A stretch of 64,000 nt of DNA from Polynucleobacter sp. (GCA_044225315.1 JBGAIU010000009.1:672-64671); one strand, 5' to 3'; counted from the stretch's first letter, positions 32,786-57,360 are shown. Notes: generated by a model from the letters alone, not told the origin. Numbers and translations are program-made.

Positions 32786-34120
32786 TTATTGGGCAACTGC
32801 CTCTTGAATCATGCCGGCTGCAACTGTGTGATTGGTAGCTTCATCGATCAATACAAAAGCCCCAGTGCGCTGAGATTGATCAAACAAGTCGGCAACAATT
32901 GGTTTTTGCAAAATGAAATCCACTCTTCCAATTTCATTGGTGGATAAGGCATGAACATCACTCGCATGCGATAGGGTTTGAACATCCAATACTTGCTGAA
33001 TATTCTTTACCTTTGCGCCAACAGTATTGGTAGTGTGACGTAAAGCATATTTACGACTCAGAGATAAAGGCTCGGTATCTAGCCAGCAAAGATCTGCTGA
33101 GAGTTGCTTACTCAATACTGGAGGATTACGGTCTTCAGTGCTGATAAATAAGGAGCCGCGCGACACATCGATGTCTTCGGCTAATTGAATGGCAACTGCT
33201 TCGCCAGTTTGAGCTGAATCTACGGCATTGCTGCCCTTGCTATCAGAGCCATTGCCTAAGTAAATTTCAGCAACAGTAGCTTCAGAGCCGCTTGGTAGCA
33301 CGGTAATTTTTTGACCTTTGCGAATGCTGCCTGACTCAATCTCGCCGAGGTAGCCACGGAAGTCATCAGAAGCACTGCCATCTTGACGCGCAACGTATTG
33401 AACGGGGAAGCGTAAAGCGAGCTTCTCAGATTCTGGGCTGGTATCTAAGCTTTCCAACAACTCCAAGAGAGTAGGGCCTTGGTACCAAGGGGTATTCTTA
33501 CTTGGGGTAACGACATTGGCGCCTAGTAGAGCTGAGATCGGAATTAATGTTGGCTTGGGTAGACCAATTTTTTCCGCGAGATCATCAATCGCAACTTTAA
33601 TGGTGTTGAATACTTTTTCATCAAATTCAAACAAGTCCATTTTGTTGATAGCAAACACCACATGGCGTAAGCCGAGCAAATGAACAATTGCTGCGTGACG
33701 TTTTGTCTGGGCCAATAAAGTTGCAGGGCTGGTATTAAGGTCTACGCGAGTGGCATCAACGAGAATCACTGCAACATCAGATTGAGATGCTCCAGTCACT
33801 AAGTTACGAGTGTATTGCTCATGACCAGGCGCATCAGCCACAATAAATTTACGCTTAGGGGTTGCGAAGTAGCGGTAAGCAACGTCAATCGTGATACCTT
33901 GCTCACGCTCAGCCTCTAAGCCATCGGTTAGAAGGGCTAAATCTACGCCAGCGTCTGAGGATGTTACACGGGCATGCTTTGTTTTAGAGAGAGACTCAAG
34001 TTGGTCAACCAGAATAGACTTGGTGTCATAAAGCAAGCGACCAATTAAGGTGCTCTTGCCGTCATTTACGCTACCTGCGGTAATAAAGCGAACCACATTT
34101 TGATGTTGATTGGTTGTCAT
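32786..34120 (-). CDS. cysN: sulfate adenylyltransferase subunit 1
   Basis: AEREQGITIDVAYRYF, DAPGHEQYTRN, NKMD; P-loop reads GSVNDGKS instead of GSVDDGKS. Confidence 0.95.
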   Translation of the reverse strand: MTTNQHQNVVRFITAGSVNDGKSTLIGRLLYDTKSILVDQLESLSKTKHARVTSSDAGVDLALLTDGLEAEREQGITIDVAYRYFATPKRKFIVADAPGHEQYTRNLVTGASQSDVAVILVDATRVDLNTSPATLLAQTKRHAAIVHLLGLRHVVFAINKMDLFEFDEKVFNTIKVAIDDLAEKIGLPKPTLIPISALLGANVVTPSKNTPWYQGPTLLELLESLDTSPESEKLALRFPVQYVARQDGSASDDFRGYLGEIESGSIRKGQKITVLPSGSEATVAEIYLGNGSDSKGSNAVDSAQTGEAVAIQLAEDIDVSRGSLFISTEDRNPPVLSKQLSADLCWLDTEPLSLSRKYALRHTTNTVGAKVKNIQQVLDVQTLSHASDVHALSTNEIGRVDFILQKPIVADLFDQSQRTGAFVLIDEATNHTVAAGMIQEAVAQ

Positions 34121-35043
34121 CAGAAGTAACCTTCTTTCTTACGGCGCTCCATTGAGGCCTCATTTGTTTGGTCATCCATGCGAGTTGCGCCACGTTCAGT
34201 GATTTCTGTAATGGCGGTTTCAGCAATGATGTCTAGCGGGTTAGCAGCGGAGCTCAGAACAGGGCAGGTGCAGCTGATGTCGCCAACAGTACGGAAACGA
34301 ACGCTAAGAATCTCGCTAATATCACCTGGCGCTTTAGGTGTCACATCGGTAACTGGTACAAGAAGATTATTTTTCTTCACCACTTCACGTTGATGGGTGT
34401 AATAGATGCTAGGTAAGGCTAGATTTTCACGGGCAATGTATTGCCAAACATCAAGCTCTGTCCAGTTTGAAATCGGGAACACGCGCATGTTTTCGCCTTT
34501 GACGATGCGGGCGTTATAGAGCTTCCAGAGTTCAGGGCGTTGGGCTTTGGGATCCCATTGGCCAAATTCGTCGCGGAAGGAGAAGATGCGTTCTTTAGCC
34601 CTTGCCTTTTCTTCATCGCGGCGTGCGCCACCCATCAGAGCATCGAATTCATATTTAGCGATTGTTTCTAGTAGGGTAACTGCCTGAGCGGCATTGCGAG
34701 AGTCCGTCTCTTTACGTAAGCGAACAGTACCTTTTTTAATAGAATCCTCTACATGACCAACGATGAGTTTAACGCCGGTGTTTTTAACAACATCGTCGCG
34801 ATATTGAATTACTTCAGGATAGTTATGTCCTGTATCAATGTGCAAAATCGGAAACGGTAACTTAACAGGACGATCGCCAAATTGGAATGCCTTACGAGCT
34901 AGGTGGAACATCACAATCGAATCTTTTCCGCCCGAAAACAGCATTGCGGGATTAGAGCACTGTGCTACCACCTCACGAATGATGTAGATGGACTCAGCTT
35001 CGAGCCAATCTAGGTGATCATCAAGTAATTTTTGTTCTGACAT
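34120..35043 (-). CDS. cysD: sulfate adenylyltransferase subunit 2
   Basis: LFSGGKDS, HIDTGHN, GGARRDEEKARAKER. Confidence 0.97.
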   Translation of the reverse strand: MSEQKLLDDHLDWLEAESIYIIREVVAQCSNPAMLFSGGKDSIVMFHLARKAFQFGDRPVKLPFPILHIDTGHNYPEVIQYRDDVVKNTGVKLIVGHVEDSIKKGTVRLRKETDSRNAAQAVTLLETIAKYEFDALMGGARRDEEKARAKERIFSFRDEFGQWDPKAQRPELWKLYNARIVKGENMRVFPISNWTELDVWQYIARENLALPSIYYTHQREVVKKNNLLVPVTDVTPKAPGDISEILSVRFRTVGDISCTCPVLSSAANPLDIIAETAITEITERGATRMDDQTNEASMERRKKEGYF

Positions 35044-35089
35044 TCTGTAAATTTCTTTTTGTTTCTACTAAGTTTTAATAATCAATACG

Positions 35090-35845
35090 TTATTTGTTGA
35101 CGTGCAGTCCACATTCTTTGCTATCGCTTTGCAGCCACCACCAGCGTCCAGCGCGGATGCCTTCGCCTTGCTTTACTTGGCGGGTACAAGGCTCGCAGCC
35201 AATACTGGGATAGCCCTTGAGGTGTAGTGGATGAATGGGAACATTTTCTTGTTTGATGTAAGCCCAGATATCAGCCTCACTCCAATCAAACAGGGGGTTA
35301 AATTTAGCAATACCTCTTGCGTCATCTAACTCTTCAAAATTCAGTTCAGTGCGAGTGGTTGATTGTTCACGACGTTGACCAGTAATCCAAGCATCTGCAC
35401 CTTGTAATGCGGCGTTCAAAGGTTTGATTTTGCGCGCGCCGCAGCAAGCTTTCTTGGGCTCTTCACCATCGTAAAAACCATTCATGCCATATTGATCGAT
35501 GAAGGCTTGAACATCGTTTTCTTGGGGGTAGACTTTTTCAATCGACACCCCGTAATGATCTTCGGTAGTCTTCACCATGTCGACAGTCTCTTGATGAAGA
35601 CGGCCTGTGGCTAAAGTAAAAAGCTTGATATTGGCTTTTGCTTTCTGAATGGCATCAGTGACCACCATATCTTCAGCGGCAAGACTCGTAGCAAAGCGAA
35701 CGTCTGAAAAGCGCTTGGCTATTTCAGCCAGACGTTCTTTTAAAACAGTGGACTTTTGTGCAAGTTCGGCTGAGCTTAGGGTGCTAGCCGGAATAGACCA
35801 AAAAGTGGGTTTTTCGAGGGTGGATGATAGATTTTGCTGGGTCAT
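35090..35845 (-). CDS. cysH: APS/PAPS reductase (Fe-S type motifs)
   Basis: CC motif (ACCGARK), YPSIGCEPCT, RAGRWWW, KECGLH. Confidence 0.93.
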   Translation of the reverse strand: MTQQNLSSTLEKPTFWSIPASTLSSAELAQKSTVLKERLAEIAKRFSDVRFATSLAAEDMVVTDAIQKAKANIKLFTLATGRLHQETVDMVKTTEDHYGVSIEKVYPQENDVQAFIDQYGMNGFYDGEEPKKACCGARKIKPLNAALQGADAWITGQRREQSTTRTELNFEELDDARGIAKFNPLFDWSEADIWAYIKQENVPIHPLHLKGYPSIGCEPCTRQVKQGEGIRAGRWWWLQSDSKECGLHVNK

Positions 35846-35898
35846 TTAGATGCTCCGAGAGGAGGCAAAATGGGTGCCTCCAGCTCTGAGCCAGCAGT
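35842..35898 (-). pseudogene. orphan 3' remnant of a deleted gene formerly coupled to cysH
   Basis: 18 sense codons (TAGSELEAPILPPLGASK*) with no start; TGA overlaps the cysH ATG; abuts an AT-rich promoter-like tract. Confidence 0.45.
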
Positions 35899-35983
35899 TT
35901 ATTGGCTATTCTTATTACTTACAAATATATATAAGTCATCGTTTTATACCTGAAAGTAATGGAGAAGCCCTGAAAAGGGCTTT

Positions 35984-36925
35984 TTAGTCCAAATCTACGT
36001 CAGATTCAGGTTTAAGAGCGGCCTTTATCTTGGCTTCATCCAGCTTGGAAGAGCATAACTCTATGAATTCATAGGCAAAACCGCGCAAGAAGTAGCCTTT
36101 TCTGAGGGCTATGCGGGTTGTATTGTCTTCAAAGAGGCTGCCGATATCGAGGAGGCTGAGCTTGGTATCGCGCTCAGCTTGATATGCCATAGAGGCAATA
36201 ATGCCAATTCCCAGGCCAAGCTCAACATAAGTTTTAATCACGTCAGCATCCAGTGCGGACATAACGATATCTGGGGTGATGCCAGCCTTAGCAAAAGTTT
36301 CATCTACTGATTTTCTTCCGGTAAAGCCTTCGTGATAAGTCACGATTGGATATTTAGCGATTTCCTCAAGAGTTAAATTTGTCTTCCCTTCAAGAGGGTG
36401 CCCTTTAGGAACCACTACAGTGTGGTGCCAGGAGTAATAAGAGAAGGTAACTAATTCCGGAATTCCTTCCAGAGCCTCTGTTGCAATACCAATATCAGCT
36501 CGACCCTCAAGTAATAGCTCAACAATTTCTTGTGGGCTACCTTGATGCAAGGCTAAATGAACCTTAGGAAACTTCTTCTTAAATTGACTAACTACATTTG
36601 GTAATGCATAGCGTGCTTGAGTATGAGTAGTAGCAATGGTCAACTGACCTTTATCAGTCTGACTAAACTGCGCCCCAAGTTGTTTAATATTTTTAGTGTC
36701 AAGCAAAATACGCTCAACAATCGTGAGCAGCTCCTTCCCAGGCTCGGTCAAACCAAGAAGACGCTTGCCTTTGCGGACGAATAGCTCAACACCCAGTTCA
36801 TCCTCTAAATCGAGAATATGCTTACTAACGCCTGATTGGGAGGTCGCTAAAGCATTGCCAACTTCAGTGAGGTTGAAGTTGCGACGGACAGTTTCGCGGA
36901 TGATGCGGAGTTGTTGAAAGTTCAT
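35984..36925 (-). CDS. cysB: CysB/Cbl-family LysR regulator
   Basis: MNFQQLRII, SQSGVSKHI, ATTHTQARYALP, DADVIKTYVELGLG; CysB versus Cbl/SsuR not resolved. Confidence 0.9.
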   Translation of the reverse strand: MNFQQLRIIRETVRRNFNLTEVGNALATSQSGVSKHILDLEDELGVELFVRKGKRLLGLTEPGKELLTIVERILLDTKNIKQLGAQFSQTDKGQLTIATTHTQARYALPNVVSQFKKKFPKVHLALHQGSPQEIVELLLEGRADIGIATEALEGIPELVTFSYYSWHHTVVVPKGHPLEGKTNLTLEEIAKYPIVTYHEGFTGRKSVDETFAKAGITPDIVMSALDADVIKTYVELGLGIGIIASMAYQAERDTKLSLLDIGSLFEDNTTRIALRKGYFLRGFAYEFIELCSSKLDEAKIKAALKPESDVDLD

Positions 36926-36953
36926 AATATTTTTTCTAATAAAAACCGAAGTT

Positions 36954-38045
36954 CTATTGCTTTGGCGGGTTTTCAAATACCCTCAATTGGGATGGAACAA
37001 TACGAACCTGTTGACCTTCGGTTAATTTCCGACTTGCTACCTCAGCTCGTGGAAGTTCTACCTCATAGTACTGTTGAGCATGTGAACCATCTTCAGAAGA
37101 AATGGCTGATAGTTCAACGCGTGCGTTTAGTCCAAATGAAAGAATGCGATCAATTTTTGCAAGTACACCATTTGTACTTTCGCTATCAACGACGATGTCT
37201 AATTCATGGGGGCGAGCAAAAGCTAAGACTGATGTGCCTTGGCTGATTGAGCTCGATTGATCATGTTTGAGCTTGCCACTTCCAACGGTAATATCTTGGC
37301 CATCAACACGACCATGAAACAAGTTCACATTTCCTAAAAAGCTATTCACAAACGGTGTTGCCGGATGGTCATACACTTCATCAGGGCTTCCTACTTGTTC
37401 AACAGCGCCCTGGTTCATCAAAATAACGTGATCAGCAACTTCAAGAGCCTCCTCTTGATCATGCGTCACAAAGATAGATGTGATGTGAAGCTCGTCATGA
37501 AGCGTTCTGAGCCAACGACGCAATTCTTTGCGCACCTTAGCGTCTAGAGCACCAAAGGGTTCATCTAAAAGCAGAATTTTTGGCTGAACGGCTAATGCTC
37601 TTGCGAGGGCGATACGTTGACGTTGTCCCCCTGATAATTGTGCAGGAAAGCGATCGTGCAGCCAATCAAGTTGAACAAGCTTTAGTAGTTCGTGAACGTT
37701 ATGGGCGATTTCTTCTTTGCTTGGACGTTCTTTACGATTCTTTACCTGAAGGCCAAAAGCAACGTTGTCAAATACTGTCATGTACTTAAACAAGGCGTAG
37801 TGCTGAAATACAAAGCCAACATGACGATCTCTTACTGAAGTATCCGCAGTATCAACACCATCCAGAATAATATTGCCGCTATCTGGAGTTTCAAGGCCGG
37901 CAATGATGCGAAGTAATGTGGTTTTACCGCAGCCAGAAGGGCCAAGAAGTGCTACAAGCTCTCCAGTAGGAAAATCCAATGAAACATTGTTTAAGGCAAC
38001 AAAGTTTCCAAAAGTTTTATTAATATTTCTGACTTCAATACTCAT
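36954..38045 (-). CDS. cysA: sulfate ABC transporter ATP-binding protein
   Basis: [24 protein letters not shown]. Confidence 0.96.
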
Positions 38046-38917
38046 AACGGTCCTTCAATTGCGGGAGGTGCATTTGTTTCAGATTTCAGGCGCCATTCAA
38101 CGTAAGTTTTAGCTGCCAAAGTTAGTAGGGCTAGTAATGCAAGGAGGGATGCCACTGCAAACGCAGCAACAAAGTTGTATTCGTTGTAAAGAATCTCTAC
38201 TTGTAGCGGAATAGTGTTGGTATAGCCGCGAATGTGCCCTGACACAACCGATACCGCCCCAAACTTGCCCATTGCGCGAGCATTACAAAGAATTACTCCA
38301 TAAAGAAGACCCCATTTGATGTTCGGAAGGGTGACATACCAAAAAGTCTGCCAACCACTTGCGCCTAACACCGTTGCGGCCTCTTCTTCTTCGCGGCCCT
38401 GTGCTTCCATCAAGGGAATCAGCTCGCGAGCAACAAATGGGAAAGTAACAAAAATGGTAGCTAAGACAATACCAGGTACCGCAAAGATAATTTTGACATC
38501 ATGTTCGCCAAGCCATGGGCCAAACCAGCCTTGAGCCCCGAACACTAAAACATAAATTAAGCCAGCGATTACAGGTGAAACAGAAAAAGGGGTGTCAATC
38601 AGGGTGATCAACAGATGTTTTCCTGGAAAATCAAACTTTGTGATTGCCCAAGATGCTGCAACACCAAATACCAAGTTCAATGGCACTGAGATTCCGGCGG
38701 CCAATAGAGTTAATTTGATCGCAGACCACGTATCAGGCTCAACAATAGATTTGAAGTAGTAAATCCAGCCCTTATGCAGAGCTTCCGCAAATACTGAAAA
38801 TAATGGAAGCAGCAAGAAAATGCCAAAGAAGCTGAGAGATAAAAGCAGTATTGTGTACTTGACTAGAGCTGAATCCTTGGTGGCGCTACTGCGCTCAAAA
38901 CGAGTTGTGTTACTCAT
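38042..38917 (-). CDS. cysW: sulfate ABC transporter permease
   Basis: [22 protein letters not shown]; GKFGAVSVV in place of GEFGAVSVV. Confidence 0.95.
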
Positions 38918-39753
38918 TAGCGAGTTCTCCCCGTTCTTTTAGCGGTCCATGCCTGAAGGCTATTAATGGCCAAAAGTAGGACCAAGGAGATCACGAGCAT
39001 CACAGAAGCAATCGCGGTTGCTCCAGCGTAGTCATATTGCTCGAGTTTGGTGATGATCATTAGCGGCGTGATTTCTGAAACCATCAGAATGTTGCCGGCA
39101 ATAAAAATTACAGAACCATATTCGCCAACAGCGCGTGCGAATGCTAAAGCAAATCCAGTCAAGAGTGCTGGAAATAAAATTGGCAAGATCACTCTCTTAA
39201 AGGTTTGCAGGCGACTTGCACCCAAGCTTGCGGATGCTTCCTCAAGTTCAAGTTCAATTTCTTCAAGAATAGGTTGAACAGTACGTACAACAAAGGGTAG
39301 CCCGATGAAGATTAATGCAACCAATACACCCCATGGCGTAAATGCAATTTTGATACCAAGCGGTTCAATGTATTGACCAATCCAACCATTTTTAGAATAG
39401 AGCGCAGCTAGTGCGATACCAGTTACTGCCGTCGGAAGTGCGAAAGGAAGATCAACCAATGCATCAACTAGGTTCTTGCCAATAAAGGTATAGCGTACTA
39501 GTGACCAGGCTAGCAAAAGACCAAAGACTGTATTGATAGCGCCAGCCAATAAGGCCATTCCAAAACTTAATCTATATAAGGCGAGTACGCGAGGTGCGGT
39601 AGTTGCATCGATAAATTCTGAAAAGGTAAGACTGGTCGTCTTAAAAATTACTGCAGAAAGTGGAATTAAAACGATGATCGATAGATAGACTATGGTGTAG
39701 CCAAGCGACAAACCAAAACCAGGAAAGATGCTCTTTTTCTTGAACGTAGACAT
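38917..39753 (-). CDS. cysT: sulfate ABC transporter permease
   Basis: [31 protein letters not shown]; start moved to ATG 39753. Confidence 0.95.
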
Positions 39754-39807
39754 CACGAGAGAATAGGGGTTTGCCCCAAAAAAAGGGAAACAAGAAATGC
39801 TCATTAA

Positions 39808-39830
39808 CTTATATGCAATTTGCATATAAG
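39808..39830. promoter_or_regulatory. 23-bp palindrome upstream of cysT, candidate operator
   Basis: CTTATATGCAA-T-TTGCATATAAG, perfect 11-bp arms. Confidence 0.5.
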
Positions 39831-39845
39831 GGTTAATTTGATGGA

Positions 39846-39879
39846 AAAACAGCCTAGAGATTGATGTCTAGGCTGTTTT
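39846..39879 (-). terminator. hairpin/terminator between sbp and cysT
   Basis: AAAACAGCCTAGA-N8-TCTAGGCTGTTTT. Confidence 0.7.
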
Positions 39880-39918
39880 GTCTTGTATTGCCCCGCTTAA
39901 TTGACGGAAATAAATCCC

Positions 39919-40923
39919 TTATTTCACGATAATTTCGTCAAAAGTACCACCATCATTAAAGTGTGTTTTTTGTGCGTTCGTCCAACCGTCAAACACTTGG
40001 TCAATAGTAATTAATTTAACCTTAGCAAATTGATTGGCGTACTTGGCAGCAACTTTAGGGTCGCGAGGGCGATAGTAGTTGCGTGCAGCAATTTCTTGCC
40101 CTTCAGGTGTGTAAAGACCTTGAAGATACGCCGTTGCCACTTTACGAGTACCTTTTTTATCAACCACTTTATCTACTACTGCGACAGGTGGTTCAGCCAA
40201 GATTGATAGAGATGGAGTCACAATTTCAAATTTATCTGGACCCAATTCTTTAACTGCTAAGAAGGCTTCATTTTCCCAAGCTAGTAAAACGTCACCAATG
40301 CCGCGTTCGGTAAAGGTGGTGGTTGCACCGCGAGCACCAGAGTCTAAAACTTTAACGTTTGCATATAGTTTTTTCACAAACTCTTTTGCCTTGGCATCAT
40401 TGCCGCCTGGTTGTTTAAGCGCATAAGCCCAAGCTGCTAGGTAGTTCCAACGTGCTCCACCGGAGGTTTTTGGGTTTGGTGTAATGACTTCAACGCCTGG
40501 TTTGATGAGGTCATTCCAGTCCTTGATGCCTTTTGGATTGCCTTTGCGAACCAAAAACACAATAGTTGATGTGTATGGAGAGGAATTGTCTTTAAATTTC
40601 TTTTGCCAATCTTTTGAGAGTAGACCCTTTTCAGCCAAAATATCAATGTCGTATGCGAGTGCTAGTGTCACAACATCAGCATCTAAACCATCAATAACTG
40701 CGCGGGCTTGTTTTCCAGAGCCACCATGGGATTGTTTGATGGAAATCTCTTCACCGGTTTTTTTCTTCCAGTCTGGTGCAAACACTTTGTCATAGTCTTG
40801 GTAGAGTTCGCGAGTTGGGTCATAGGAAACGTTCAGAATACTTTGTTGTGCAAAGCTGGTAGATATCAAGCCAGCGCCCAGTAAAAGCGCTGCTAAAAAT
40901 TTTGATAGACCCTGGTGTTTCAT
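39919..40923 (-). CDS. sbp: sulfate-binding periplasmic protein
   Basis: [33 protein letters not shown]; signal peptide present. Confidence 0.96.
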
Positions 40924-40966
40924 TGCAATTCCTTTCAGTTAATGAAAGGAATTTAGAGAAAAACCC

Positions 40967-41629: not shown

Positions 41630-41783
41630 GGTGAATTGCGGATGACTATATAACTCACCACTGCAATTTGGAATCAAGAAAAAATGCTAACGATATTTAG
41701 GAATGCTTATCTGTAATTCTTGGTTCTCACGTTGACGGTTTAGTCATAAATTTCATTTGTTTATTCATTTATGCAAATGGCTT

Positions 41784-42689
41784 ATGTCTCACCATTCAAT
41801 TTCTAGCGCCTTAAACCTTTCTCAAGTGGTTAGCGATTTGCGCCGCTCAAGAGAAGAAACGCACAAGATTCGTCATTTGGACAGGGTACGAGAGCTTCCA
41901 TCCAGAGAAGCTTTAGAGAAAATTTTAGAGGGCTTATTTGCTGCATTATTTCCAACCCACTATGGTCGCGCCGATCTGACGGATGAGAGTATTGATTACT
42001 TTGTGGGTAATGTTCTAAGTGTGGTCCTGAATTCCTTGACCGAACAAATTCGTCGTGGTCTTTATTTCTCTTCCGATAGTAATTTAGAGAAAGAGGAAAA
42101 ATTTGACGCTTTATCAGAAACATTAGCGAGTCAATTTGCTAGCGAGCTTCCTGCAATTCGAGCATTAATCGTTAGTGATATACGTGCGGCAATGAGTGGC
42201 GATCCAGCTGCCACTAGCGTTTCTGAGATTCTCTTGTGCTATCCAGGTGTTAGCGCAGTGATTCATTACCGAATTGCTCATGCCCTATATGAATTAGGCG
42301 CGCCGCTATTAGCCCGATTTATTTCTGAGATTGCTCACTCTCGCACAGGTGTGGATATTCACCCTGGCGCGAAGATCGGAGAGGGCTTTTTCATTGATCA
42401 TGGCACTGGCGTAGTGATTGGTCAGACGGCCATTTTGGGTAAGAACATTCGTCTATATCAAGCAGTTACTTTGGGCGCAAAACGGTTCCCAGAAGATGAT
42501 GAAGGCAATCTGATTAAGGGGGCAGATCGGCACCCAATTTTGGAAGATGACGTTGTTATTTATGCGGGTGCAACAGTACTTGGGCGAATCACGATTGGCG
42601 CGCGATCGACCATAGGCGGCAATGTGTGGCTTACAAAGAGTGTTCCCCCGGATAGCAATATTTCTCAGGCTCAAACACTTGGGCACTAA
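41784..42689 (+). CDS. cysE: serine O-acetyltransferase (EpsC/CysE type)
   Basis: GDPAA, GVDIHPGAKIG, FFIDHGTGVVIG, RHPILEDDVVIYAGATVLG. Confidence 0.94.
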   Translation: MSHHSISSALNLSQVVSDLRRSREETHKIRHLDRVRELPSREALEKILEGLFAALFPTHYGRADLTDESIDYFVGNVLSVVLNSLTEQIRRGLYFSSDSNLEKEEKFDALSETLASQFASELPAIRALIVSDIRAAMSGDPAATSVSEILLCYPGVSAVIHYRIAHALYELGAPLLARFISEIAHSRTGVDIHPGAKIGEGFFIDHGTGVVIGQTAILGKNIRLYQAVTLGAKRFPEDDEGNLIKGADRHPILEDDVVIYAGATVLGRITIGARSTIGGNVWLTKSVPPDSNISQAQTLGH

Positions 42690-42744: not shown

Positions 42745-43665
42745 ATGGCAGAAGTAATTCAAAGTCCAACAGCGTTAGGAGATTTGGCCGCACGGCAGTT
42801 AGCAAACGCTACGAAAACAGTACCTCAGTTATCAACAATTACCCCGCGTTGGTTAACTCAACTTTTGGGTTGGGTTCCTGTTGAGGCAGGTATTTATCGT
42901 CTAAATCGAGTAATTAACCCATCTGAAGTATTAACAGACTGTTCAAGTCGTGATAACGAGCGTGTATTGCCACAAACATTTGTGGACTATGATGCTAAGC
43001 CACGCGAATATTTCTTGAGTGCTGTTAATACAGTATTAGATGTTCATACCCGTATTTCAGATCTATACAGCAGTCCATACAATCAAATTAGCGAGCAGTT
43101 GCGTTTAACTATCGAAACTGTCAAAGAGCGTCAAGAAGGTGAATTAATTAATAACGCTGAGTATGGCTTACTTGCAAGCGTTGCGCCTGATCAACGTATC
43201 AAAACTCGTACTGGCGCACCAACACCAGATGATTTGGATGAGTTGTTGACTAAAGTTTGGAAAGAGCCTGGTTTCTTCTTGGCCCATCCTAAGACAATCG
43301 CTGCATTTGGTCGTGAATGTACTCGTCGCGGCGTTCCTCCTCCAACAGTTAGACTCTTTGGCAGTCAATTTTTGACATGGCGTGGCGTTCCATTGATTCC
43401 ATCAGACAAAGTCAAGATTCAGGATGGTAAATCTTCAATCCTATTGATTCGTAGCGGTGAGAAAAAGCAAGGCGTGGTTGGCTTGTATCAACCTAATTTG
43501 CCAGGTGAGCAAAGCCCAGGCCTCTTAGTTCGTTTCATGGGGATTAATAACAAAGCAATCGCTTCTTATTTGGTTTCTTTGTATTGCTCTTTGGCAGTAC
43601 TGACTGATGATGCGCTTGCAGTGTTAGATGGCGTTGAGATTGGCAAATACCATGAGTACAAGTAA
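42745..43665 (+). CDS. family 2A encapsulin nanocompartment shell protein (SrpI-like)
   Basis: ARQLANATKTVPQLSTITPRWL, WVPVEAGIYRLNRV, PTPDDLDELL, ECTRRGVPPP, YLVSLYCSLAVL; 306 aa. Confidence 0.95.
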   Translation: MAEVIQSPTALGDLAARQLANATKTVPQLSTITPRWLTQLLGWVPVEAGIYRLNRVINPSEVLTDCSSRDNERVLPQTFVDYDAKPREYFLSAVNTVLDVHTRISDLYSSPYNQISEQLRLTIETVKERQEGELINNAEYGLLASVAPDQRIKTRTGAPTPDDLDELLTKVWKEPGFFLAHPKTIAAFGRECTRRGVPPPTVRLFGSQFLTWRGVPLIPSDKVKIQDGKSSILLIRSGEKKQGVVGLYQPNLPGEQSPGLLVRFMGINNKAIASYLVSLYCSLAVLTDDALAVLDGVEIGKYHEYK

Positions 43666-48220: not shown

Positions 48221-48239
48221 TTTTATAAGGGGAGAATTT

Positions 48240-48623: not shown

Positions 48624-49479
48624 TTAGCCAAAGGTAATGCGATGAAGTAAGCGATGTTGATTACCATAATCATTCGCAGCATAGTGAACAGTTGCACGGT
48701 TATCCCAGATGGCAACCGTGTTCCTCTCCCAACGTAATCGGGCTTGAAACTCTGGTCTTTGGAACTGGGCAAATATGAAAGTTAGAAGGGCATCACTTTG
48801 TTGGCGCGACAACCCTTTAATGCGGTCCGTGAAATTAGGATTTACATAAATGATTTTTTCCTGTTACAGGGTGAACGCGTACTACAGGATGAACTACTGG
48901 TAGGTTCTCTGCACGGGCTTGGCGATAGACTTCCTCGCCATTTTCGAGTTTGGAAAAATAATTAGGCCAACCACTATGCTCAAAGCTATGTGTTGCCTCC
49001 AGGGTTTCTAAATAGGTTTGCAAATGGCTCGGAAGCGATTCATATACAGCGGTAGCGCTGGCCCAGAGAGTATCTCCACCTGAGGTTGGAATGATATGAG
49101 AGTAAAGAACAGTTCTAGTAGGCGGGTTTTGAGAGAAGGTAATGTCAGCATGCCATTGGTCAGTTCCATAGCGATGGCCAGATGGCTTGGCTTCAATTAC
49201 TTCAATGAGTTTGTGATCACCCAGTCTTGGGAAGAAAGCTTTTGTTTTATTAGGATCCCCAAATACTTTGGCAACCTCAACCTGCTGGTCTGGAGTGAGT
49301 TTTTGGTCGCGGAAAAATAGCACTTGGAATTCAGAGAGGGCTTTACGTAGCTCATCTCGAACAGGCTCGGAATCTAATTTGGACAGATCTAAGTCGTAAA
49401 TAGTGGCGCCAATATTGGGCGTATAGGGCTCAATGGATAGATGGGCATAACCTGGCACTGCATATTCAATTTTTGACAT
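48624..49479 (-). pseudogene. tauD: TauD/TfdA dioxygenase frameshifted in an A-run at 48854-48859
   Basis: WHADITF, HPVVRVHP; adding one A restores TGKKIIYVNPNFT...IWDNRATVHYA...HRITFG*. Confidence 0.9.
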
Positions 49480-49732
49480 CTCATGACCCTTTTTCTTGAT
49501 TTAGTACGAAAGGGGAGATTAAGTACTGCATTCGAAGTTGTGAAGAATGAAATTCTGATTTGCTTATCTATAAAAGCGATATTTGCTTCTAATCGCTTTG
49601 TTTAGCGCTGGAAACGCCTTTATCAAAAATTAAGCTAAGCAACTCAGAAAGTATTGGTTCTTTTGCAGAATCTCTTTTCCTAGAATGACAAATCCAATCT
49701 CTTGCGCGCATTGCGCCTATTTCAGAAGGTAG

Positions 49733-50713
49733 ATGATGAATTTCGGTAAACTAAGAATGCTATTGGTAACTTTTAAGACGCTTGTGCTTTCAAGCGCTTT
49801 GGTGTTTTCTTCTGCCCAAGCGGATAACCCAAATACTTTAAGAATTGGTTATCAAAAATCATCAAGTATTCTGACTTTACTTAAGGCGGATGGCTCTTTT
49901 GAGAAGCAGCTTGGATTTAAGGGGGTGGATGTCAAGTGGGTTGAGTTTCCTGCAGGTCCACAGTTGCTAGAGGGTCTCAATGTCGGCTCTATTGATTTTG
50001 GTTATGTAGGCGAGGCTCCTCCGATATTTGCTCAGGCTGCTGGAGCAAGCTTCGTATATGTTGGTTATCAAACTCCGGCACCTAAAGCTGAAGCAATTCT
50101 GGTGCCAAAGGATTTGCCAATTAAGAAAGTTTCCGATCTAAAGGGTAAAAAGGTTGCCCTCAACAAGGGTTCAAATGTTCACTATTTGTTAATTAAAGTA
50201 TTAGAAAAGCACGGCCTGAAATATTCTGATGTGCAGCCCGTATTTCTCGCGCCCGCAGACGCACGAGCAGCTTTTGAAAAGGGGAGTGTAGACGCTTGGG
50301 CAATTTGGGATCCATTCCAAGCAGCCGCAGAAATTCAAATTGGCGCTAAGGAACTCGCTAATGGAGTTGGCACAGTAAATAACGTAAATTACTTCCTAGC
50401 TTCACGGCCTTACGCAGAAAAAAATCCAGCAGTCATTAAAGCGCTATTTGCCGCAATTTCCGAGCAAGGCGCTTGGATTACCAAGAATAAAAAGGCAGCT
50501 GCAGAAGCGCTCGCCCCAATTCAAGGCCTTACTCCAGATGTCATTGAACTGAGCATTAGTCGATATCACAACGATATCTTGCCGATTAACAGCAAAATAT
50601 TGGCCGATCAACAAAAGGTCGCTGATGTTTTCTATGAACTGAAGCTAATTCCGCAACCAATTGCCGTTAAAGATGCAGTTTTTCAACTGAAAAGGCTAAA
50701 TAATGTTTGCTAG
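49733..50713 (+). CDS. ssuA: aliphatic sulfonate ABC transporter substrate-binding protein (copy 1)
   Basis: RIGYQK, EFPAGPQLLEGL, KGSNVH, AIWDPF. Confidence 0.92.
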   Translation: MMNFGKLRMLLVTFKTLVLSSALVFSSAQADNPNTLRIGYQKSSSILTLLKADGSFEKQLGFKGVDVKWVEFPAGPQLLEGLNVGSIDFGYVGEAPPIFAQAAGASFVYVGYQTPAPKAEAILVPKDLPIKKVSDLKGKKVALNKGSNVHYLLIKVLEKHGLKYSDVQPVFLAPADARAAFEKGSVDAWAIWDPFQAAAEIQIGAKELANGVGTVNNVNYFLASRPYAEKNPAVIKALFAAISEQGAWITKNKKAAAEALAPIQGLTPDVIELSISRYHNDILPINSKILADQQKVADVFYELKLIPQPIAVKDAVFQLKRLNNVC

Positions 50714-51689
50714 CTTAATTCGGTTTTGGTTTTGCGTACTAGCGATCATTGGTAGCCACTTATTTGGGGTAAATGTCCATGCGGCAGTCTCGGATGCAGA
50801 TAAGACCCCAGCTCAAATTCGCATTGGTTTTCAAAAGAGTGCTATTAATTTGATTTTGCTAAAACAACGCGGAACGCTTGATGCGCTATTTCCGAATAGT
50901 AAAGTCACATGGACAGAGTTCCCTGCAGGCCCTCAATTATTAGAAGCCTTATCAGTTGGCAGTATTGATTTTGGATTGACCGGAGATGCGCCACCTGTAT
51001 TTGCGCAATCAGCTGGCAAAGATGTGATTTATGTAGGTGCTGAACCACCAAAACCAAAAAGTTCCGCAATCTTGGTGCCCGCTAACTCGAGTATTAAAAC
51101 TCTTAAAGATTTAAAAGGAAAGAGAATTGCATTTCAAAAGGGCTCATCCTCACACAATCTTCTGGTTCGAGCTCTAAAGAAAGCAGGTTTATCCTGGAGC
51201 GACATTGAGGCAGCATATTTACCGCCTGCCGAAGGCCGTGCTGCATTTGAGAAGGGAAGCGTGGATGCATGGGTGATTTGGGATCCATACTATGCCGCCG
51301 CAGAATTATCTTCTTCTAAACCGAGAGTTCTAGCAACTGGTGAGGGTTTATCAGATAACAACTCTTTTTACCTAAGTTCATCTGCGTTTAATCAAAACTA
51401 TCCCGATACAGTCAAAAAGCTACTCATCGCGTTGACTGAGGCAGATCAATATATATCTGCCAATAAAAAGGAATCTGCACTTGCTTACTCAAGTTATAGC
51501 GGTCTCCCCTTAGATGTGGTTTATCGCTTTGTTGATAGAAGACCACTTGCACCAACCACCCCTTTAAGTCCCAAAACGGTCGCAGAGCAACAGCGTGTAG
51601 CTGATGCATTCTTTCAGTTGGGCTTAATCCCTAAACCAATCGTTGTTAGTGATGTTGTAGCAAAGCCTACGAATCCTAAAGTTAAATAA
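50703..51689 (+). CDS. ssuA: aliphatic sulfonate ABC transporter substrate-binding protein (copy 2)
   Basis: RIGFQK, EFPAGPQLLEAL, KGSSSH, VIWDPY. Confidence 0.92.
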   Translation: MFASLIRFWFCVLAIIGSHLFGVNVHAAVSDADKTPAQIRIGFQKSAINLILLKQRGTLDALFPNSKVTWTEFPAGPQLLEALSVGSIDFGLTGDAPPVFAQSAGKDVIYVGAEPPKPKSSAILVPANSSIKTLKDLKGKRIAFQKGSSSHNLLVRALKKAGLSWSDIEAAYLPPAEGRAAFEKGSVDAWVIWDPYYAAAELSSSKPRVLATGEGLSDNNSFYLSSSAFNQNYPDTVKKLLIALTEADQYISANKKESALAYSSYSGLPLDVVYRFVDRRPLAPTTPLSPKTVAEQQRVADAFFQLGLIPKPIVVSDVVAKPTNPKVK

Positions 51690-51707
51690 CGTTAAGAACT
51701 TTAGCGA

Positions 51708-52499
51708 GTGCAATATATGAGTTCTGAAAAGCTAGATAAAGCAACAAAAGCCATCGTTCCATGGCTAACGCCAGTGATTTTGATCGCTATATGGCAGTGG
51801 GCAGCTCAGGCCGGGTATTTATCAACACGTATCCTGCCTTCGCCTTTGGCTATTGGCCTTGCATTTGTCAAATTATCTAGTTCAGGTGAACTGTGGTTGC
51901 ATGTAAAGACGAGTACATGGCGGGCGTTGTCGGGGTTTGCTATTGGCGGTGGTTTGGGTCTGATATTGGGACTCATCACCGGTTCATTTAAAAGAGCAGA
52001 AGTTCTTTTGGACACCACCTTGCAAATGATTCGCAATATCCCTCCCTTGGCATTAATTCCTTTAGTCATTCTTTGGTTCGGAATTGATGAGGTGGCAAAG
52101 TTATTTTTAGTGTCGGTCGGGGTATTTTTTCCGGTCTATGTAAACACCTTCCATGGCATTCGGAACGTTGATCCGGGCTTAATTGAAATGGCAAAAAGTT
52201 ATGGGCTCAAAGGTTTCGCATTGTATTGGAATGTGATTTTGCCCGGGGCTTTGCCTTCTATTTTGGTGGGTGTTCGTTTTTCACTGGAATTAATGTGGGT
52301 CTTATTAATTGTGGCCGAAACCATTTCCGCTCAATCTGGAATTGGCTACATGACCATGAATGCCCGTGAATTTTTACAGACCGATATCGTGTTGGTTGGT
52401 ATTTTGGTTTACGCCCTACTAGGAAAGTTAGCCGATGTTCTAGCAAAAGGTTTGGAGCGCTATTGGCTCCGTTGGCACCCTGGTTATCAGTCGGCTTGA
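51708..52499 (+). CDS. ssuC: aliphatic sulfonate ABC transporter permease
   Basis: MIRNIPPLALIPL, AETISAQSGIGYM. Confidence 0.95.
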   Translation: MQYMSSEKLDKATKAIVPWLTPVILIAIWQWAAQAGYLSTRILPSPLAIGLAFVKLSSSGELWLHVKTSTWRALSGFAIGGGLGLILGLITGSFKRAEVLLDTTLQMIRNIPPLALIPLVILWFGIDEVAKLFLVSVGVFFPVYVNTFHGIRNVDPGLIEMAKSYGLKGFALYWNVILPGALPSILVGVRFSLELMWVLLIVAETISAQSGIGYMTMNAREFLQTDIVLVGILVYALLGKLADVLAKGLERYWLRWHPGYQSA

Positions 52500-52508
52500 G
52501 TTGGTCTT

Positions 52509-53288
52509 ATGAAAAATCATTCCAAAGAATTAGAGGAAATTAAGAAAGTGGAAGGGATAGTCGCATCCAAGGCGGGCGTTTCTATTACTCTTCAAGAGTT
52601 GAAAAAGAATTATGGAGACCGTCAGGTACTCCGTGGACTCGATCTTGAAATTGAGCCAGGTGAATTCGTAGCGATAGTTGGGCGTAGCGGATGCGGTAAG
52701 AGTACTTTGTTGCGGCTTGTTGCAGGTTTAGAAAAGGCTAGCGCTGGCGAGCTCTATCTTGATTATGTATATCTATCGAGCAACTCTGATACTCGGATTA
52801 TGTTTCAAGAGGCGCGCCTGCTTCCTTGGAAAAAGGTGCTGCAGAATGTTGCCATTGGTCTAACGTCAGGAATATTACATCGAGCCCAAGAAGTTTTGGC
52901 AGCAGTTGGATTGGCAGACTGGGGTGATGAGTGGCCAGCCAGGCTTTCGGGCGGTCAAAAGCAGCGGGTAGCTCTTGCGAGGGCTTTGGTCCATAAGCCA
53001 AAACTACTATTGCTTGACGAGCCCTTAGGTGCCCTAGATGCGCTGACGCGCATTGAAATGCATCAATTAATTGAGTCCTTGTGGATTAAGAACGGCTTTA
53101 CAGCTTTGCTAGTTACGCACGATGTTTCAGAGGCAATTGCATTAGCTGACCGCATTCTCTTAATTGAGGATGGATCAATCGCATTAAATATAAAAGTCGA
53201 TTTGCCAAGACTAAGACAGCGCGCATCGCAAAAATTTATCGAAATAGAAGAAAAGTTATTAGGCCAATTGTTGGGCAGCTCTAATTAA
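52509..53288 (+). CDS. ssuB: aliphatic sulfonate ABC transporter ATP-binding protein
   Basis: [29 protein letters not shown]. Confidence 0.94.
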
Positions 53289-53300
53289 AGGAACGAAAGA

Positions 53301-54368
53301 ATGAGTTTTTATCGTGATTACAACGACAAGTTAGCTTTTGAGGCGTGGAATACAAGGAGTCATCCAACGTTCAGCACTCTACAGGTTGAGCCTATCGCGA
53401 GAGCGGGTGGCGCCAAGATTTCTGGTGTCGATTTGTCTAAAGAGTTGAGCGCGGAACAATTTGCAGAAATCAAAAAGGCTTTGGCTGAGTATCAGGTTCT
53501 GGTATTTCGGGATCAAAATATCAGCTCTGAACAGCATAAAAAGTTTGGTTTGAAGTTTGGCTCGCTACACCGCCACGTCAGTGCCGCTATTAGAGCCCCT
53601 GGTGGTGATCCAGAAATTCTGGCGTGGAAGACGGGTAAGAATAGTCGCTTTACCGCAGGCGAGGTTTGGCATAGCGATGTGTCTTGCGATGAAAATCCTA
53701 TTACTGAATCAATTTTGCGAGTGACAAAACTCCCTGAAGGTGGCGGTGGCGATACTGCATTTATCAATACGCATCTTGCTTTTGAATCTTTATCTGAGCC
53801 CTTGAAAAACTTTATATTGGGTTTAAGTGCGGAGCATTCTGGCCAAGAAGGTTGGACAAACGGTTATGGGGAAGAGCCTGCTCCTGGTCAAAAATTCGCT
53901 AGCTCTATTCACCCCGTAGTAATTACTCATCCTGTGACAGATCGTAAGCATGTATTTGTTAACCGAGGATTCACAACAAAAATTATCGAATTGGTTCGAA
54001 ACGAGAGCAATGCAATCCTCGAATTACTGAACCGCCATATTGAAACCAGCCAAGCATTCCAATTTCGTGTTCAGTGGGAGCCTAATACTGTAGTAATTTG
54101 GGATAACTGGGCTGTTCAGCATCAAGCAATTTGGGATTACTACCCCTTTAATCGCTGGGGTAAGCGTGTATCTGCGGTTGCGGGAATTCGCCCATCACAA
54201 GGCGAGACAAATAAAGCGACTTCAGAAAAGCCTGTTTTAGAGCTTGCCCAGCCTCCGATGTGGAGGCACGGTATTTGTTGCGCAGAAGAAGAATATGGTG
54301 CCGCAGATCTCAATAGGGGCTCTTCTGACTTAATCAAACTTGAGGGGGCGCCATACGCCTCCCCTTGA
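53301..54368 (+). CDS. TauD/TfdA dioxygenase (second copy) with apparent C-terminal run-on
   Basis: WHSDVS, HPVVITHP, IWDNWAVQH; last ~55 aa overlap the EAL gene. Confidence 0.85.
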   Translation: MSFYRDYNDKLAFEAWNTRSHPTFSTLQVEPIARAGGAKISGVDLSKELSAEQFAEIKKALAEYQVLVFRDQNISSEQHKKFGLKFGSLHRHVSAAIRAPGGDPEILAWKTGKNSRFTAGEVWHSDVSCDENPITESILRVTKLPEGGGGDTAFINTHLAFESLSEPLKNFILGLSAEHSGQEGWTNGYGEEPAPGQKFASSIHPVVITHPVTDRKHVFVNRGFTTKIIELVRNESNAILELLNRHIETSQAFQFRVQWEPNTVVIWDNWAVQHQAIWDYYPFNRWGKRVSAVAGIRPSQGETNKATSEKPVLELAQPPMWRHGICCAEEEYGAADLNRGSSDLIKLEGAPYASP

Positions 54369-55099
54369 ACTAGAAGATTGTCTTCCTTGTTAGTCTTTTT
54401 ATGGTCGTTGATTTTAGTGATGACTATATTCGCACCATTTTGAACCGTTACTAATTGCTCCAGTTTTTGATTTAGATCGCTACTAATAAACTGATCCGCA
54501 ATCTTGATGTATTTGATCTCCGCTCTATCTAGAGAGGCATCTATATCTTCAATGGAGTCGATATTGATTGCGACCTCAAGCGAATTTAAACGGTAGTTTT
54601 GTAATACAAAGTGAAGACGTTTCTTATCCTTAACCAAAGAGATTGGTAATTCAATGACGATGCGGCTGGGGGAGAATCCCAGAGCATCTATGACTTTTCT
54701 AAATGACGATCCATGGTTGTCATCCACTGCTGAAATTAGTCCTTCATGAACATTTAAAAACAGCAACGCATTATCTATGCCTTGTAGTGAAAAATTGAGT
54801 AAATGAATGGTGCGGCAAAGACGATCTAAGCTGGTGATATCGTCATGTTCTACTAATTTCGAAAATAGATCCCTAGGTTTAATTTGGTTCCCATAGGCGT
54901 CTGAACAGCGAACAAAAGCCTCATAAGCTACGGGCTTAATAAGGTCGGTCGATCTGTAGATTGGTTGAAAAACGCTAGATAAAACCAGGTTTTGCTATTT
55001 AGCACTAATTACGCCCGCCTCATTTAAAAAAAGAGATCGGTTGGTGCTGCTACCTCTCAGACCATCGACAAAAAGTCTGGTTTTGCTTGGAACTCTCAT
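54140..55099 (-). pseudogene. stand-alone EAL-domain protein with in-frame TAG at 54995-54997
   Basis: Hand translation from ATG 55099: ...GVISAK*QNLVLSSVFQPIY...AYEAFVR...LFLNVH...IVIE. Confidence 0.78.
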
Positions 55100-55112: not shown

Positions 55113-56099
55113 TTACCGTTTTTTGTTTGCATAAACATCAATCACAATTTGATCGTAAACGCCGCCATCATCAAATTGCTCTTTTTGCGCTTTCTTCCAG
55201 CCACCAAAAACATCTTCTACGGTAAATGTTTTGACTGGCGGGAAATTAACTGCATATTTTTTGGTAATTGCAGGGGTGGGGTTATTGGGTCGGAAGTAGT
55301 GCTTCGCAATGATTTCTTGACCACTTTCAGTGAAGAGGAAGTCTAAATATGCCTTGGAGAGCTTTTCAGTGCCATGTTTTTTGGCATATTTTTTAACTAC
55401 CGCCACAGGGGCTGGCGCTTCAATAGTGATGGAGGGATGCACAACATCAAACTTTCCTGCGCCAACTTCCTTATTAATTAATTCAGCCTCGTTTTCAAAA
55501 GTAATGAGCACATCACCAATATCTCGTTGAGTAAATGTTGTTGTAGCACCTCTGCCACCTCCATCTAAAATGGGCACGTTGATAAAGAGATCGCGTACAA
55601 ATTCCTTGGCCTGCTTTTCGCTTTTCGTCTTTTGAAGTGCGTATCCGTATGCTGCAAGGTAGGTATAGCGACCATTGCCAGAAGTTTTGGGGTTGGGAAT
55701 GATCACCTGAGTCCCGGGTTTTACAAGATCTGACCAATCTTTAATATTTTTTGGGTTGCCTTTGCGAACCAAGAAAACGGTCACCGAAGAATATGGAGAT
55801 GCTTGTTTAGAAAATGCATTTCTCCAATTTGGATTTACCAAATTGCCGCGTTCGACCAAGATATCAATATCTGGTGACTGATTCATGGTCACTACATCGG
55901 CCTCTAAACCACCAATAATGGCCCCGGCTTGTTTGCTAGATCCGCCATGGGATTGGTTGATAGTTGGCGCTGAACCTGTTTTGGCTTTCCAATCCGCGGC
56001 AAATGCAGGATTAATATCTTTATAAAGCTCTCGAGAAACGTCGTAAGAGACATTAAGGATGGTATTTGAATTTTGAGATTGGGCAATTCCATTTGCCAT
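55113..56099 (-). CDS. sulfate/thiosulfate-binding protein (second copy), N-terminus possibly damaged
   Basis: LNVSYDVSRELY, SHGGSSKQ, PNPKTSGNGRY; hydrophobic signal-like codons lie upstream of the only in-frame ATG. Confidence 0.88.
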   Translation of the reverse strand: MANGIAQSQNSNTILNVSYDVSRELYKDINPAFAADWKAKTGSAPTINQSHGGSSKQAGAIIGGLEADVVTMNQSPDIDILVERGNLVNPNWRNAFSKQASPYSSVTVFLVRKGNPKNIKDWSDLVKPGTQVIIPNPKTSGNGRYTYLAAYGYALQKTKSEKQAKEFVRDLFINVPILDGGGRGATTTFTQRDIGDVLITFENEAELINKEVGAGKFDVVHPSITIEAPAPVAVVKKYAKKHGTEKLSKAYLDFLFTESGQEIIAKHYFRPNNPTPAITKKYAVNFPPVKTFTVEDVFGGWKKAQKEQFDDGGVYDQIVIDVYANKKR

Positions 56100-56385
56100 A
56101 ACTAGACTGCAAATAGCGAAAAAGCCGATTGTTTTACTTGTAAATTTTCTGAGAGTCCCGAGGTGTAGTAAATGTGAAATCTACTGGGCATAAGCTTAAG
56201 CCCATTAAATTAATATTGGAATCAAGAACATCTGATAAGTAATCCCATGGCTAGAATATTGCCTAAAAAATAAGTAATTTGATAGCGTTTTTTGTTATTA
56301 GCTTATACGTAAGGCTTCTTTTACAAAAATAGCCTCCTGCTCTAAGATTAAATGCAATTTTAGAACCCCTATATTAGGAATAGAA

Positions 56386-57360
56386 ATGACCTACTTTGCT
56401 GATAATTCGCAAACAATTGGCCGCACACCTTTGGTTTGCCTTAACCGCGTTACTGATGGTGCCAAAGCCACCGTGCTTGCCAAAATTGAAGGACGTAACC
56501 CAGCCTATTCAGTTAAATACCGTATTGGTGTGGCCATGATTAACGATGCCCAAGAAAAAGGTCTTTTGGGACCTGGCAAAGAGATCGTTGAGCCAACTAG
56601 CGGAAATACAGGTATTGCATTAGCTTTCGTTGCTGCTGCACGTGGTATTCCATTAACGCTGACAATGCCAGAAACAATGAGTCTTGAGCGCCGTAAGTTG
56701 CTAACTGCTTTGGGCGCTAAAATTGTTTTGACAGAAGGTCCAAAGGGAATGAATGGCGCTGTTGCTAAAGCCAAAGAAATTGCTGAGTCTGATCCCAGCA
56801 AATATGTACTGCTTCAGCAATTTAGTAATCCATTAAATCCAGCGATTCATGAGAAAACTACTGGTCCAGAAATTTGGGAAGATGCCGATGGAAAGGTTGA
56901 TGTCTTTGTTGCAGGAGTAGGTACTGGCGGTACGATTTCTGGCGTGGGCCGTTACATTAAAAACGAGAAGAAAAAGAATATTGAAGTAGTGGCAGTCGAG
57001 CCAACTGCGAGCCCAGTGATTACTCAAAAACTGAATGGCGAAGAAATTAAACCAGCCCCACACAAGATCTAAGGTATTGGAGCTGGCTTTATTCCAGATA
57101 ATCTCGATTTATCAGTAGTAGATAAAGTCGAGCAGGTCAGCAATGAAGAGGCAATTGAATTTGCCCGCCGTATTGCTAAGGAAGAGGGTATTTTGGTTGG
57201 TATTTCCTGTGGTGCCGCCGCTGCTGTTGCGGTGCGTTTAGCTAAAAAGCCAGAGTATGCGGGTAAGACAATTGTGGTCGTATTGCCAGATGCTGCTGAG
57301 CGTTACTTGAGCTCCGCTTTGTTCGAGGGCGTCTTCGATGAAAAAGGTTTGCCAGCTTAA
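56386..57360 (+). pseudogene. cysK: cysteine synthase A with in-frame TAA at 57070-57072
   Basis: [28 protein letters not shown]; frame continues to ERYLSS...TAA 57358-57360. Confidence 0.95.

Follow-up and report, generated by a model that had tools for sequence, protein, structure and literature searches.

The sulfur cluster described here, about 24.6 kb of a Polynucleobacter genome that also holds an encapsulin operon, has counterparts among described systems. Family 2A encapsulins with a cysteine desulfurase (CyD) are represented by SrpI of S. elongatus (PDB 6X8M/6X8T) and by 'Major membrane protein I' (PDB 8T6R). The sulfur genes correspond to the CysB/Cbl-regulated cys, ssu and tau sets of E. 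coli and the Burkholderiales. As to the state of the genome, the closest counterparts are the Polynucleobacter that live as obligate endosymbionts in Euplotes (Boscaro et al. 2013, 2017, via review PMC11253213): their pseudogene fraction is raised, and decay affects genes of transport, catabolism and sulfur assimilation. In symbiotic P. necessarius, pseudogenes are reported to be more numerous and the assimilation of nitrate and sulfate to have gone, most amino-acid biosynthesis being kept; symbionts are known to have originated repeatedly in the genus (PMC11253213).

We analysed a stretch of 64,000 nucleotides, in the following called the window, which is contig C4:672-64671 of the Polynucleobacter assembly G000 (genome of 1.96 Mb, 39-contig draft, 94% completeness). 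Profile matches to Pfam and NCBIfam place the genes for sulfur uptake and sulfate activation and the encapsulin genes side by side between positions 32786 and 57360, and agree in gene identities and contiguity with an earlier note on this DNA. The cluster comprises cysN, cysD, cysH, a CysB-family regulator, cysA, cysW, cysT, sbp, a serine hydrolase, an accessory serine O-acetyltransferase (SAT), the family 2A encapsulin, the cysteine desulfurase, fpr, dsbB, doxX, HU, tauD, two ssuA, ssuC, ssuB, a second tauD, an EAL-like gene, a second sbp and cysK. The likeness to the E. coli and Burkholderiales sets lies in sbp-cysTWA, cysDN, cysH, ssuABC, tauD, cysK and the regulator. Unlike those sets, the genes are packed here in one neighbourhood, whereas cysI-DUF934-cobA, cysM and cysE are situated elsewhere, and no ssuD/ssuE monooxygenase was seen here.

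Several genes of the cluster are broken. We consider it likely that these lesions are one local instance of a near-neutral accumulation of mutations that set in recently throughout the genome, and that no loss directed at one pathway is involved. G000 would then fit the reduction pattern of the Euplotes symbionts at an earlier stage: most amino-acid biosynthesis is kept here as well (cysE and cysM are open) and decay has set in independently in the relatives G029 and G022, but the genome measures 1.96 Mb, the ratio of nonsynonymous to synonymous substitution rates (dN/dS) is 0.05, the erosion appears very young, and a host association is something we infer.

Gene decay in the cluster and across the genome

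The clearest lesion is found in cysK (56386..57360, plus strand), in which Q229 is replaced by a TAA stop codon at 57070-57072; three relatives have CAA or CAG (Gln) at this position. The pseudogene carries in addition the missense changes R18C, C45Y, which adjoins the lysine binding pyridoxal phosphate (PLP), and S150L. The first tauD copy (tauD1, 48624..49479, minus strand) is frameshifted at an A6/T6 homopolymer (48855-48860). Its C-terminal 76 codons resume in another frame (48854-48624), where they match tauD2 with E=2e-13, and the Pfam TauD match covers profile positions 2-197 of 267. In the EAL-like pseudogene (54251..55099, minus strand) a Trp codon that is retained in the open orthologue of G026 has become an in-frame TAG at 54995-54997; this gene has no Pfam or NCBIfam match, so that 'EAL' is a label only. 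Three further genes are open but changed at conserved residues. In cysN, D19N affects the G1/P-loop (codon 34064-34066, GAT>AAT); it is private to G000, the residue being Asp in G029 and G026 (GAT in both), in PDB 1ZUN and in archaeal EF1A. CysW has E>K in its GEFG loop (38264-38266), where all 16 homologous high-scoring segment pairs have Glu, and ssuC has G>E at 52287-52289, where Gly is aligned in 24/24 homologues. With these, nearly every lesion named in the earlier note was recovered. An apparent stop at the 5' end of cysW was rejected as a lesion, since it sits upstream of an ATG that is conserved in all relatives.

From these lesions it had been concluded that assimilation is broken and that de novo cysteine synthesis is being lost. 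As far as the first conclusion is concerned, cysK is dead, but the frames leading from sulfate to sulfide, for uptake, activation and reduction, are all open (sbp/cysTWA, cysDN and cysH, plus cysI outside the window), and what remains are the three missense changes. The second conclusion was not supported. It is correct that the 64-kb window contains no sulfite reductase; however, a genome-wide search for cysI and cysM, chosen beforehand as the test that could overturn the claim, returned open copies of both. The sulfite reductase gene cysI (574 amino acids) lies together with DUF934, cobA and cbiX at C24:113245-116729; it is 92-93% identical to that of G177 and shows 3 mild private changes. 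CysM is open at C18:8711-9622, scores 514 bits against an equivalog cut-off of 413 bits and is 99% identical to the G177 protein. It carries a private P45L (CCA>CTA) in the NP-x-GSVKDR loop, four residues before the PLP lysine, where 7/7 relatives have Pro. A canonical cysE is open on C32 (TIGR01172, 235.7 bits against a cut-off of 210.65). The adjacency of cysB and cysH without cysI (intergenic 35845-35984) is common to G026 and G029; it is therefore probably ancestral, and not the scar of a deletion. Function cannot be read from open frames, as CysM P45L, cysN D19N and cysW E>K illustrate, but to judge from the genes present cysteine synthesis is not demonstrably lost.

The frequency of broken genes in the rest of the genome was estimated by mapping the open reading frames (ORFs) from about 260 kb each of G177, the closest clean relative (~89% mean nucleotide identity), and of G029 onto the whole G000 genome (tblastn). 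Internal stops or frame changes were found in 20/168 genes with the G177 queries and in 18/163 with the G029 queries, that is in 11-12%, and in every conservation class. In the reciprocal census only 4/168 genes were broken in G177 (2.4%), compared with 23/161 in G029 (14%). The general picture of a decaying genome is thus borne out. The cluster itself, with 3 of its 26 genes broken, does not depart from the genome-wide 38/331 (Fisher p=1.0), so that the uneven decay proposed in the earlier note finds no support. Among the genes broken elsewhere are lon, hsp33, purL, a pgsA-like gene, CoA-transferases, an enoyl-CoA hydratase and several transporters. Genes unrelated to sulfur are also broken in the window: a major facilitator superfamily transporter (TGG>TAG at 8254, C4:8925), a CoA-transferase subunit (CAA>TAG at 11408, C4:12079), a TctC-family receptor (TGG>TGA at 13288, C4:13959) and a DUF294 nucleotidyltransferase with cNMP-binding, CBS and DUF294 domains (30862-32680, minus strand). 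The last is frameshifted near 31090-31140, which distributes DUF294_C positions 3-70 and 76-145 over two separate ORFs. Because non-sulfur genes of the window and 11-12% of the genes genome-wide are broken too, the decay is not specific to sulfur. A census that does without homology, counting pairs of ORFs in one frame with a single stop between them, was also tried; with 168 pairs per Mb as compared with 131-150 per Mb in relatives it was too noisy and was discarded.

Each of the 20 nonsense codons derived from Trp or Gln codons amounts to one G:C>A:T step, with TAG, TGA and TAA occurring indiscriminately. A reassignment of stop codons (TGA to Trp, or TAA/TAG to Gln) was rejected: Trp is replaced by TAG seven times and by TGA five times, Gln by TAA five times and by TAG three times, and prfB is present. 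G:C>A:T steps are also enriched among the window-private nonsynonymous changes (21/70 as compared with 17/147 in two relatives, p=0.002). The strain contained in run SRR35011326 differs from G000 by 18 substitutions in ~30 kb (~0.06%), and 13 of these read G/C in G000 and A/T in SRR35011326. Nonsynonymous and synonymous differences between the two strains (N:S) number 11:4 over 22.5 kb of the window (p=1e-4 vs P(N)=0.25), a small sample that includes P>L, G>R and S>F. Purifying selection between the sister strains is therefore relaxed and change is close to neutral. In contrast, the long-term dN/dS against G177 is 0.049 genome-wide at dS=0.52, and the erosion must consequently be much younger than the species; the long-term ratio stays this low because divergence began long before the erosion. 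Long-term dN/dS, the test proposed in the earlier note, was therefore uninformative, and for the cluster the nearest relatives have only ~78% DNA identity, so that dS is saturated.

A defect in DNA repair confined to this lineage was considered as the cause and rejected. The MutS_V profile has no match in G000, G177, G029 or G026, as opposed to 11/14 control genomes with a match, and is thus missing as a genus trait; uracil-DNA glycosylase is present and open in all four Polynucleobacter genomes. Mismatch repair may be absent throughout the genus. As MutS_V is missing, a transition-rich spectrum is to be expected, and the novelty of this lineage is that it now keeps such changes.

The encapsulin operon

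The operon is located on the plus strand and consists of the accessory SAT gene (41781..42689), the shell gene (42745..43665) and the gene of the desulfurase cargo (43628..45418). The shell protein of 306 amino acids is SrpI-like (PF19307, 355.9 bits, cut-off 22.8) and matches PDB 8T6R (E=2.7e-156) and the SrpI structure 6X8M (E=1.1e-148) over its full length. It has no cNMP-binding domain: the SrpI-like domain is the only one, and PDB entries of the 2B type (470-477 amino acids) align only from residue 66-71. The cargo is a SufS-type desulfurase (Aminotran_5, 482 bits, residues 216-584 of 596) with an N-terminal extension of ~200 amino acids. PDB desulfurases align only to residues 180-589, with E=1e-174 for 8KG1. 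The extension contains LADLANQNF, read directly in the sequence; LADLAN is a motif of the disordered cargo-loading extension of family 2A cargo. The SAT is distinct from canonical CysE in scoring 175-177 bits with TIGR01172, below the cut-off of 210.65 bits, and carries a private G23D.

By its predicted products the operon has the features of family 2A, namely an SrpI-like shell without a cNMP-binding domain and an adjacent desulfurase with an extension. It shares with the S. elongatus SrpI-type systems the downstream SufS-type desulfurase with its long N-terminal extension and LADLAN, the adjacent SAT and a setting of sulfur-starvation genes; assembly into a closed shell and loading of the cargo may be affected here by the shell substitutions G203R and S261L described below. 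The closest named relative of the encapsulin is found in Polynucleobacter victoriensis (91% amino-acid identity). Within the genus it is rare, being present in 7/201 sampled genomes and absent from 194/201; G022 is not a carrier. A brief literature search found no paper on encapsulins in Polynucleobacter.

The three frames of the operon are open, and the earlier note had suggested that the compartment may be retained to process host-supplied cysteine, or may simply not have been hit yet. Private changes at residues otherwise invariant across four Polynucleobacter relatives number 9 in cysA, 3 in cysW, 4 in cysT, 2 in the SAT, 4 in the shell and 5 in the cargo. With 11 changes in 1189 codons compared with 16 in 944 for cysAWT (p=0.12) the density in the operon matches that of its neighbours, which indicates that it is not spared by the mutational process.

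Some of the substitutions are radical. The shell has the private changes G203R (43351) and S261L (43525). Among 80 homologues, position 203 is Ser in 74 and Gly, Thr and Pro in 2 each, and position 261 is Ser in 70 and Ala in 10; here the residues are Arg and Leu, whereas both solved shells, 8T6R and 6X8M, have Ser at both sites. In the cargo (numbering from 43640) G325R replaces a residue that is Gly in 72/77 homologues, L305F and H454Y are unique among the homologues, and A289S differs at a column that is invariant among at least 60 homologous loci. L305F, G325R and H454Y are private. In G029, which bears the encapsulin as well, the shell is intact but the cargo gene has the stop W436*. Given this stop, and G203R and S261L in the G000 shell, nothing favours retention of the encapsulin. 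The probability that three given genes escape frame lesions at the genome-wide rate is ~0.69. Retention for host cysteine was therefore not borne out, and the note's own fallback, that the operon has not been hit yet, is favoured as far as frame-breaking lesions are concerned.

Neighbouring genes and history of the region

The remaining sulfate genes are encoded on the minus strand. The GTPase subunit of sulfate adenylyltransferase, cysN (32786..34120), is open (Pfam GTP_EFTU; PDB 1ZUN, E=1e-110), as is cysD (34120..35043; Pfam PAPS_reduct), which has the private changes E130K and A181V. The open cysH (35090..35845) is predicted to encode a thioredoxin-dependent reductase of adenosine phosphosulfate or phosphoadenosine phosphosulfate (NF002537, 265 bits; TIGR02055, 262 bits). 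It is followed by the CysB-family LysR regulator (35984..36925; open; NF009327, 459 bits against a cut-off of 402 bits; private P162S and E191K) and by the open frames of the cysA-cysW-cysT ATP-binding cassette (ABC) transporter for sulfate/thiosulfate (36954..39825). The private changes of cysA include H88Y, Y234N and G235S, and those of cysT S60L, W183L and P224L. Also open are the gene of a sulfate/thiosulfate-binding protein (sbp/cysP-like, 39919..40923; Pfam SBP_bac_11; private G312D), the serine hydrolase gene (PF06821, 40967..41629) and, beyond the encapsulin operon, the gene for ferredoxin-NADP reductase (fpr, 46190..46966), which is 99% identical to that of G029.

The aliphatic sulfonate ABC transporter ssuA-ssuA-ssuC-ssuB (49733..53288; NF008588, NF008470) is encoded on the plus strand with its frames open. 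It is followed on the same strand by tauD2 (53301..54368, 355 amino acids), whose TauD domain ends near residue 291 and whose tail of ~55 amino acids overlaps the EAL-like gene. On the other side of this overlap, which is tail to tail, the EAL-like frame (54140-54766) passes the site at which it stops in G026 (GG* in G026, GGW here). Changes of stop codons at this junction of the ssu/tauD island are possible, to judge from the overlap of tauD2 and the EAL-like gene. The gene of the second sulfate-binding protein (55113..56099, minus strand) has an open frame; no start codon precedes its signal-peptide-like stretch, so that its start may be damaged.

In G029 and G026 the syntenic regions lack the stretch 47555-54493, which holds doxX, HU, tauD, ssuAACB and tauD, and likewise 27351-32740, which holds DUF294, a sodium:solute symporter and an RNase T-like exonuclease. 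The nearest SsuC homologues of the ssu/tauD island (~47.6-54.4 kb; 87-94% identity) come from metagenomes and one Polynucleobacter metagenome-assembled genome, and the island has no DNA-level relative among the 200 other sampled genomes of the genus. It can be regarded as a laterally variable part of an otherwise ordinary Polynucleobacter sulfur-acquisition neighbourhood. G177 is ~89-92% identical to G000 in core regions and 73-84% identical across the sulfur/encapsulin cluster (36041-45376). This drop suggests that the cluster has a different history from the core genome, via recombination or transfer.

Alternative explanations and significance

We considered whether the stops and frameshifts could be sequencing or assembly errors, or C>T deamination damage, in a draft assembly. 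An excess of changes of the C>T type would be in line with damage, 39 contigs and 94% completeness are those of a draft, and even the essential gene gyrB looks frameshifted. However, the Logan assembly of SRR35011326 encodes the same cut-off cysK of 228 amino acids and the same tauD1 of 214 amino acids, and the Logan assemblies of SRR35011326 and SRR28480388 both encode an identical 306-residue shell, private substitutions included. Since separate assemblies reproduce the cysK, tauD1 and shell products exactly, the lesions are genuine and unlikely to be artefacts. Moreover, 2-3 samples are reported to contain the contigs, most lesions affect dispensable functions, and gyrB shows a 4-bp deletion, not a miscounted homopolymer. 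We regard the artefact as highly improbable.

Some observations weigh against a genome-wide near-neutral accumulation of mutations. The gyrB deletion (C28:12290-12380, outside the window), which changes CAAAAAGAAGATCGC of G177 into CAAAAGACCGC, splits the gene into ORFs of 693 and 147 amino acids, each ~98% identical to G177. Such a gene is hard to square with a living cell, unless the protein functions in two parts or a minority allele was assembled. The deletion found no confirmation in an independent assembly, neither the truncated product nor a neighbouring gene being on record and the Logan contig reached through dnaN stopping before the site. The census covers ~330 sampled ORFs by tblastn without curation and may contain a few false calls; the 'stop' in atpH, for instance, falls in a spurious N-terminal extension. 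Finally, the genome is not small (1.96 Mb as compared with 2.0-2.2 Mb in relatives) and its long-ORF coverage of 0.94 equals that of relatives, so that neither size nor coding density is reduced. Erosion has not yet removed DNA and would have to be very young.

The model of the earlier note, in which sulfate assimilation and cysteine synthesis are lost selectively, cysteine is drawn from a host and selection keeps the encapsulin compartment to process it, can point to the dead cysK, to cysN, cysW and ssuC changed at invariant residues, to the three open frames of the operon and to the loss of sulfate assimilation reported for symbiotic P. necessarius (PMC11253213). It also draws on the relatives. 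In G029 the cluster copy (G029:C1 ~145-162 kb) shows a stop in cysH, frameshifts in cysB, the serine hydrolase gene and cysK, a deletion in sbp and the CyD stop already mentioned, that is 6/16 broken genes as compared with 14% genome-wide (p=0.019), and cysI is split too; G022 retains only a fragment of cysI and a short cysK. Nevertheless, we give this model little credence. The lesion rate of the G000 cluster is that of the genome background, open copies of cysI, cysM and cysE exist elsewhere, radical private substitutions occur in shell and cargo as densely as in the neighbouring genes, and the G029 cargo gene is itself broken. Nor is the encapsulin a general requirement, given its absence from 194 genomes including G022 with its cysI and cysK remnants. 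The same relatives allow a related reading, in which eroding lineages lose sulfur acquisition in a repeatable order, with cysK and the sulfate route going early, CysE-CysM always kept and the shell outlasting its cargo. Separate lesions have broken cysK in G000 and in G029, and it is truncated in G022; cysI, still open in G000, whose lineage carries the family 2A operon, is broken in both G029 and G022; six of 16 cluster genes are hit in G029; and every genome tested has open CysM and CysE. On this evidence such an order is a tentative suggestion, and a doubtful one. A lineage kept in the laboratory or in enrichment, in which bottlenecks let mutations accumulate in a bacterium naturally without mismatch repair and without any host, would likewise give the near-neutral N:S and the transition-dominated spectrum, and the normal genome size, the missing MutS and the near-identical strains in several Sequence Read Archive runs would agree with it. 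But strains ~0.06% apart share the pseudogenes, and the population must have diversified after erosion began; the losses fall mainly on transporters, catabolic enzymes, purL, lon and hsp33, a profile also seen in host-restricted bacteria, and symbionts have arisen repeatedly in the genus (PMC11253213). We therefore think a laboratory origin not likely.

For the genome-wide near-neutral accumulation the most likely cause would be that purifying selection collapsed recently in a lineage restricted to a host or living as an endosymbiont, a condition known from Polynucleobacter in Euplotes, and the genome is probably host-dependent. G:C>A:T transitions and small indels dominate, in a genus without MutS; about one gene in nine has been broken as they accumulated, and radical missense changes are scattered everywhere, shell and cargo included. 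Which frames stay open at this early stage would be largely a matter of chance.

If this is correct, the genome is a snapshot of very early genome erosion, with a normal size, ~12% of its genes freshly broken and near-neutral change between sister strains, and with a mutation spectrum set by the genus-wide lack of MutS. Such a snapshot helps to ask what goes first. Should the loss of sulfur acquisition prove to follow an order, streamlining would be ordered rather than contingent, and the encapsulin would be seen at an early stage of decay. G203R and S261L could serve as experimental probes of shell assembly. For the reading of eroding genomes in general a caution follows: an open frame counts for little as a sign of function, and so do a few broken genes in one pathway as a sign that the pathway is being lost.

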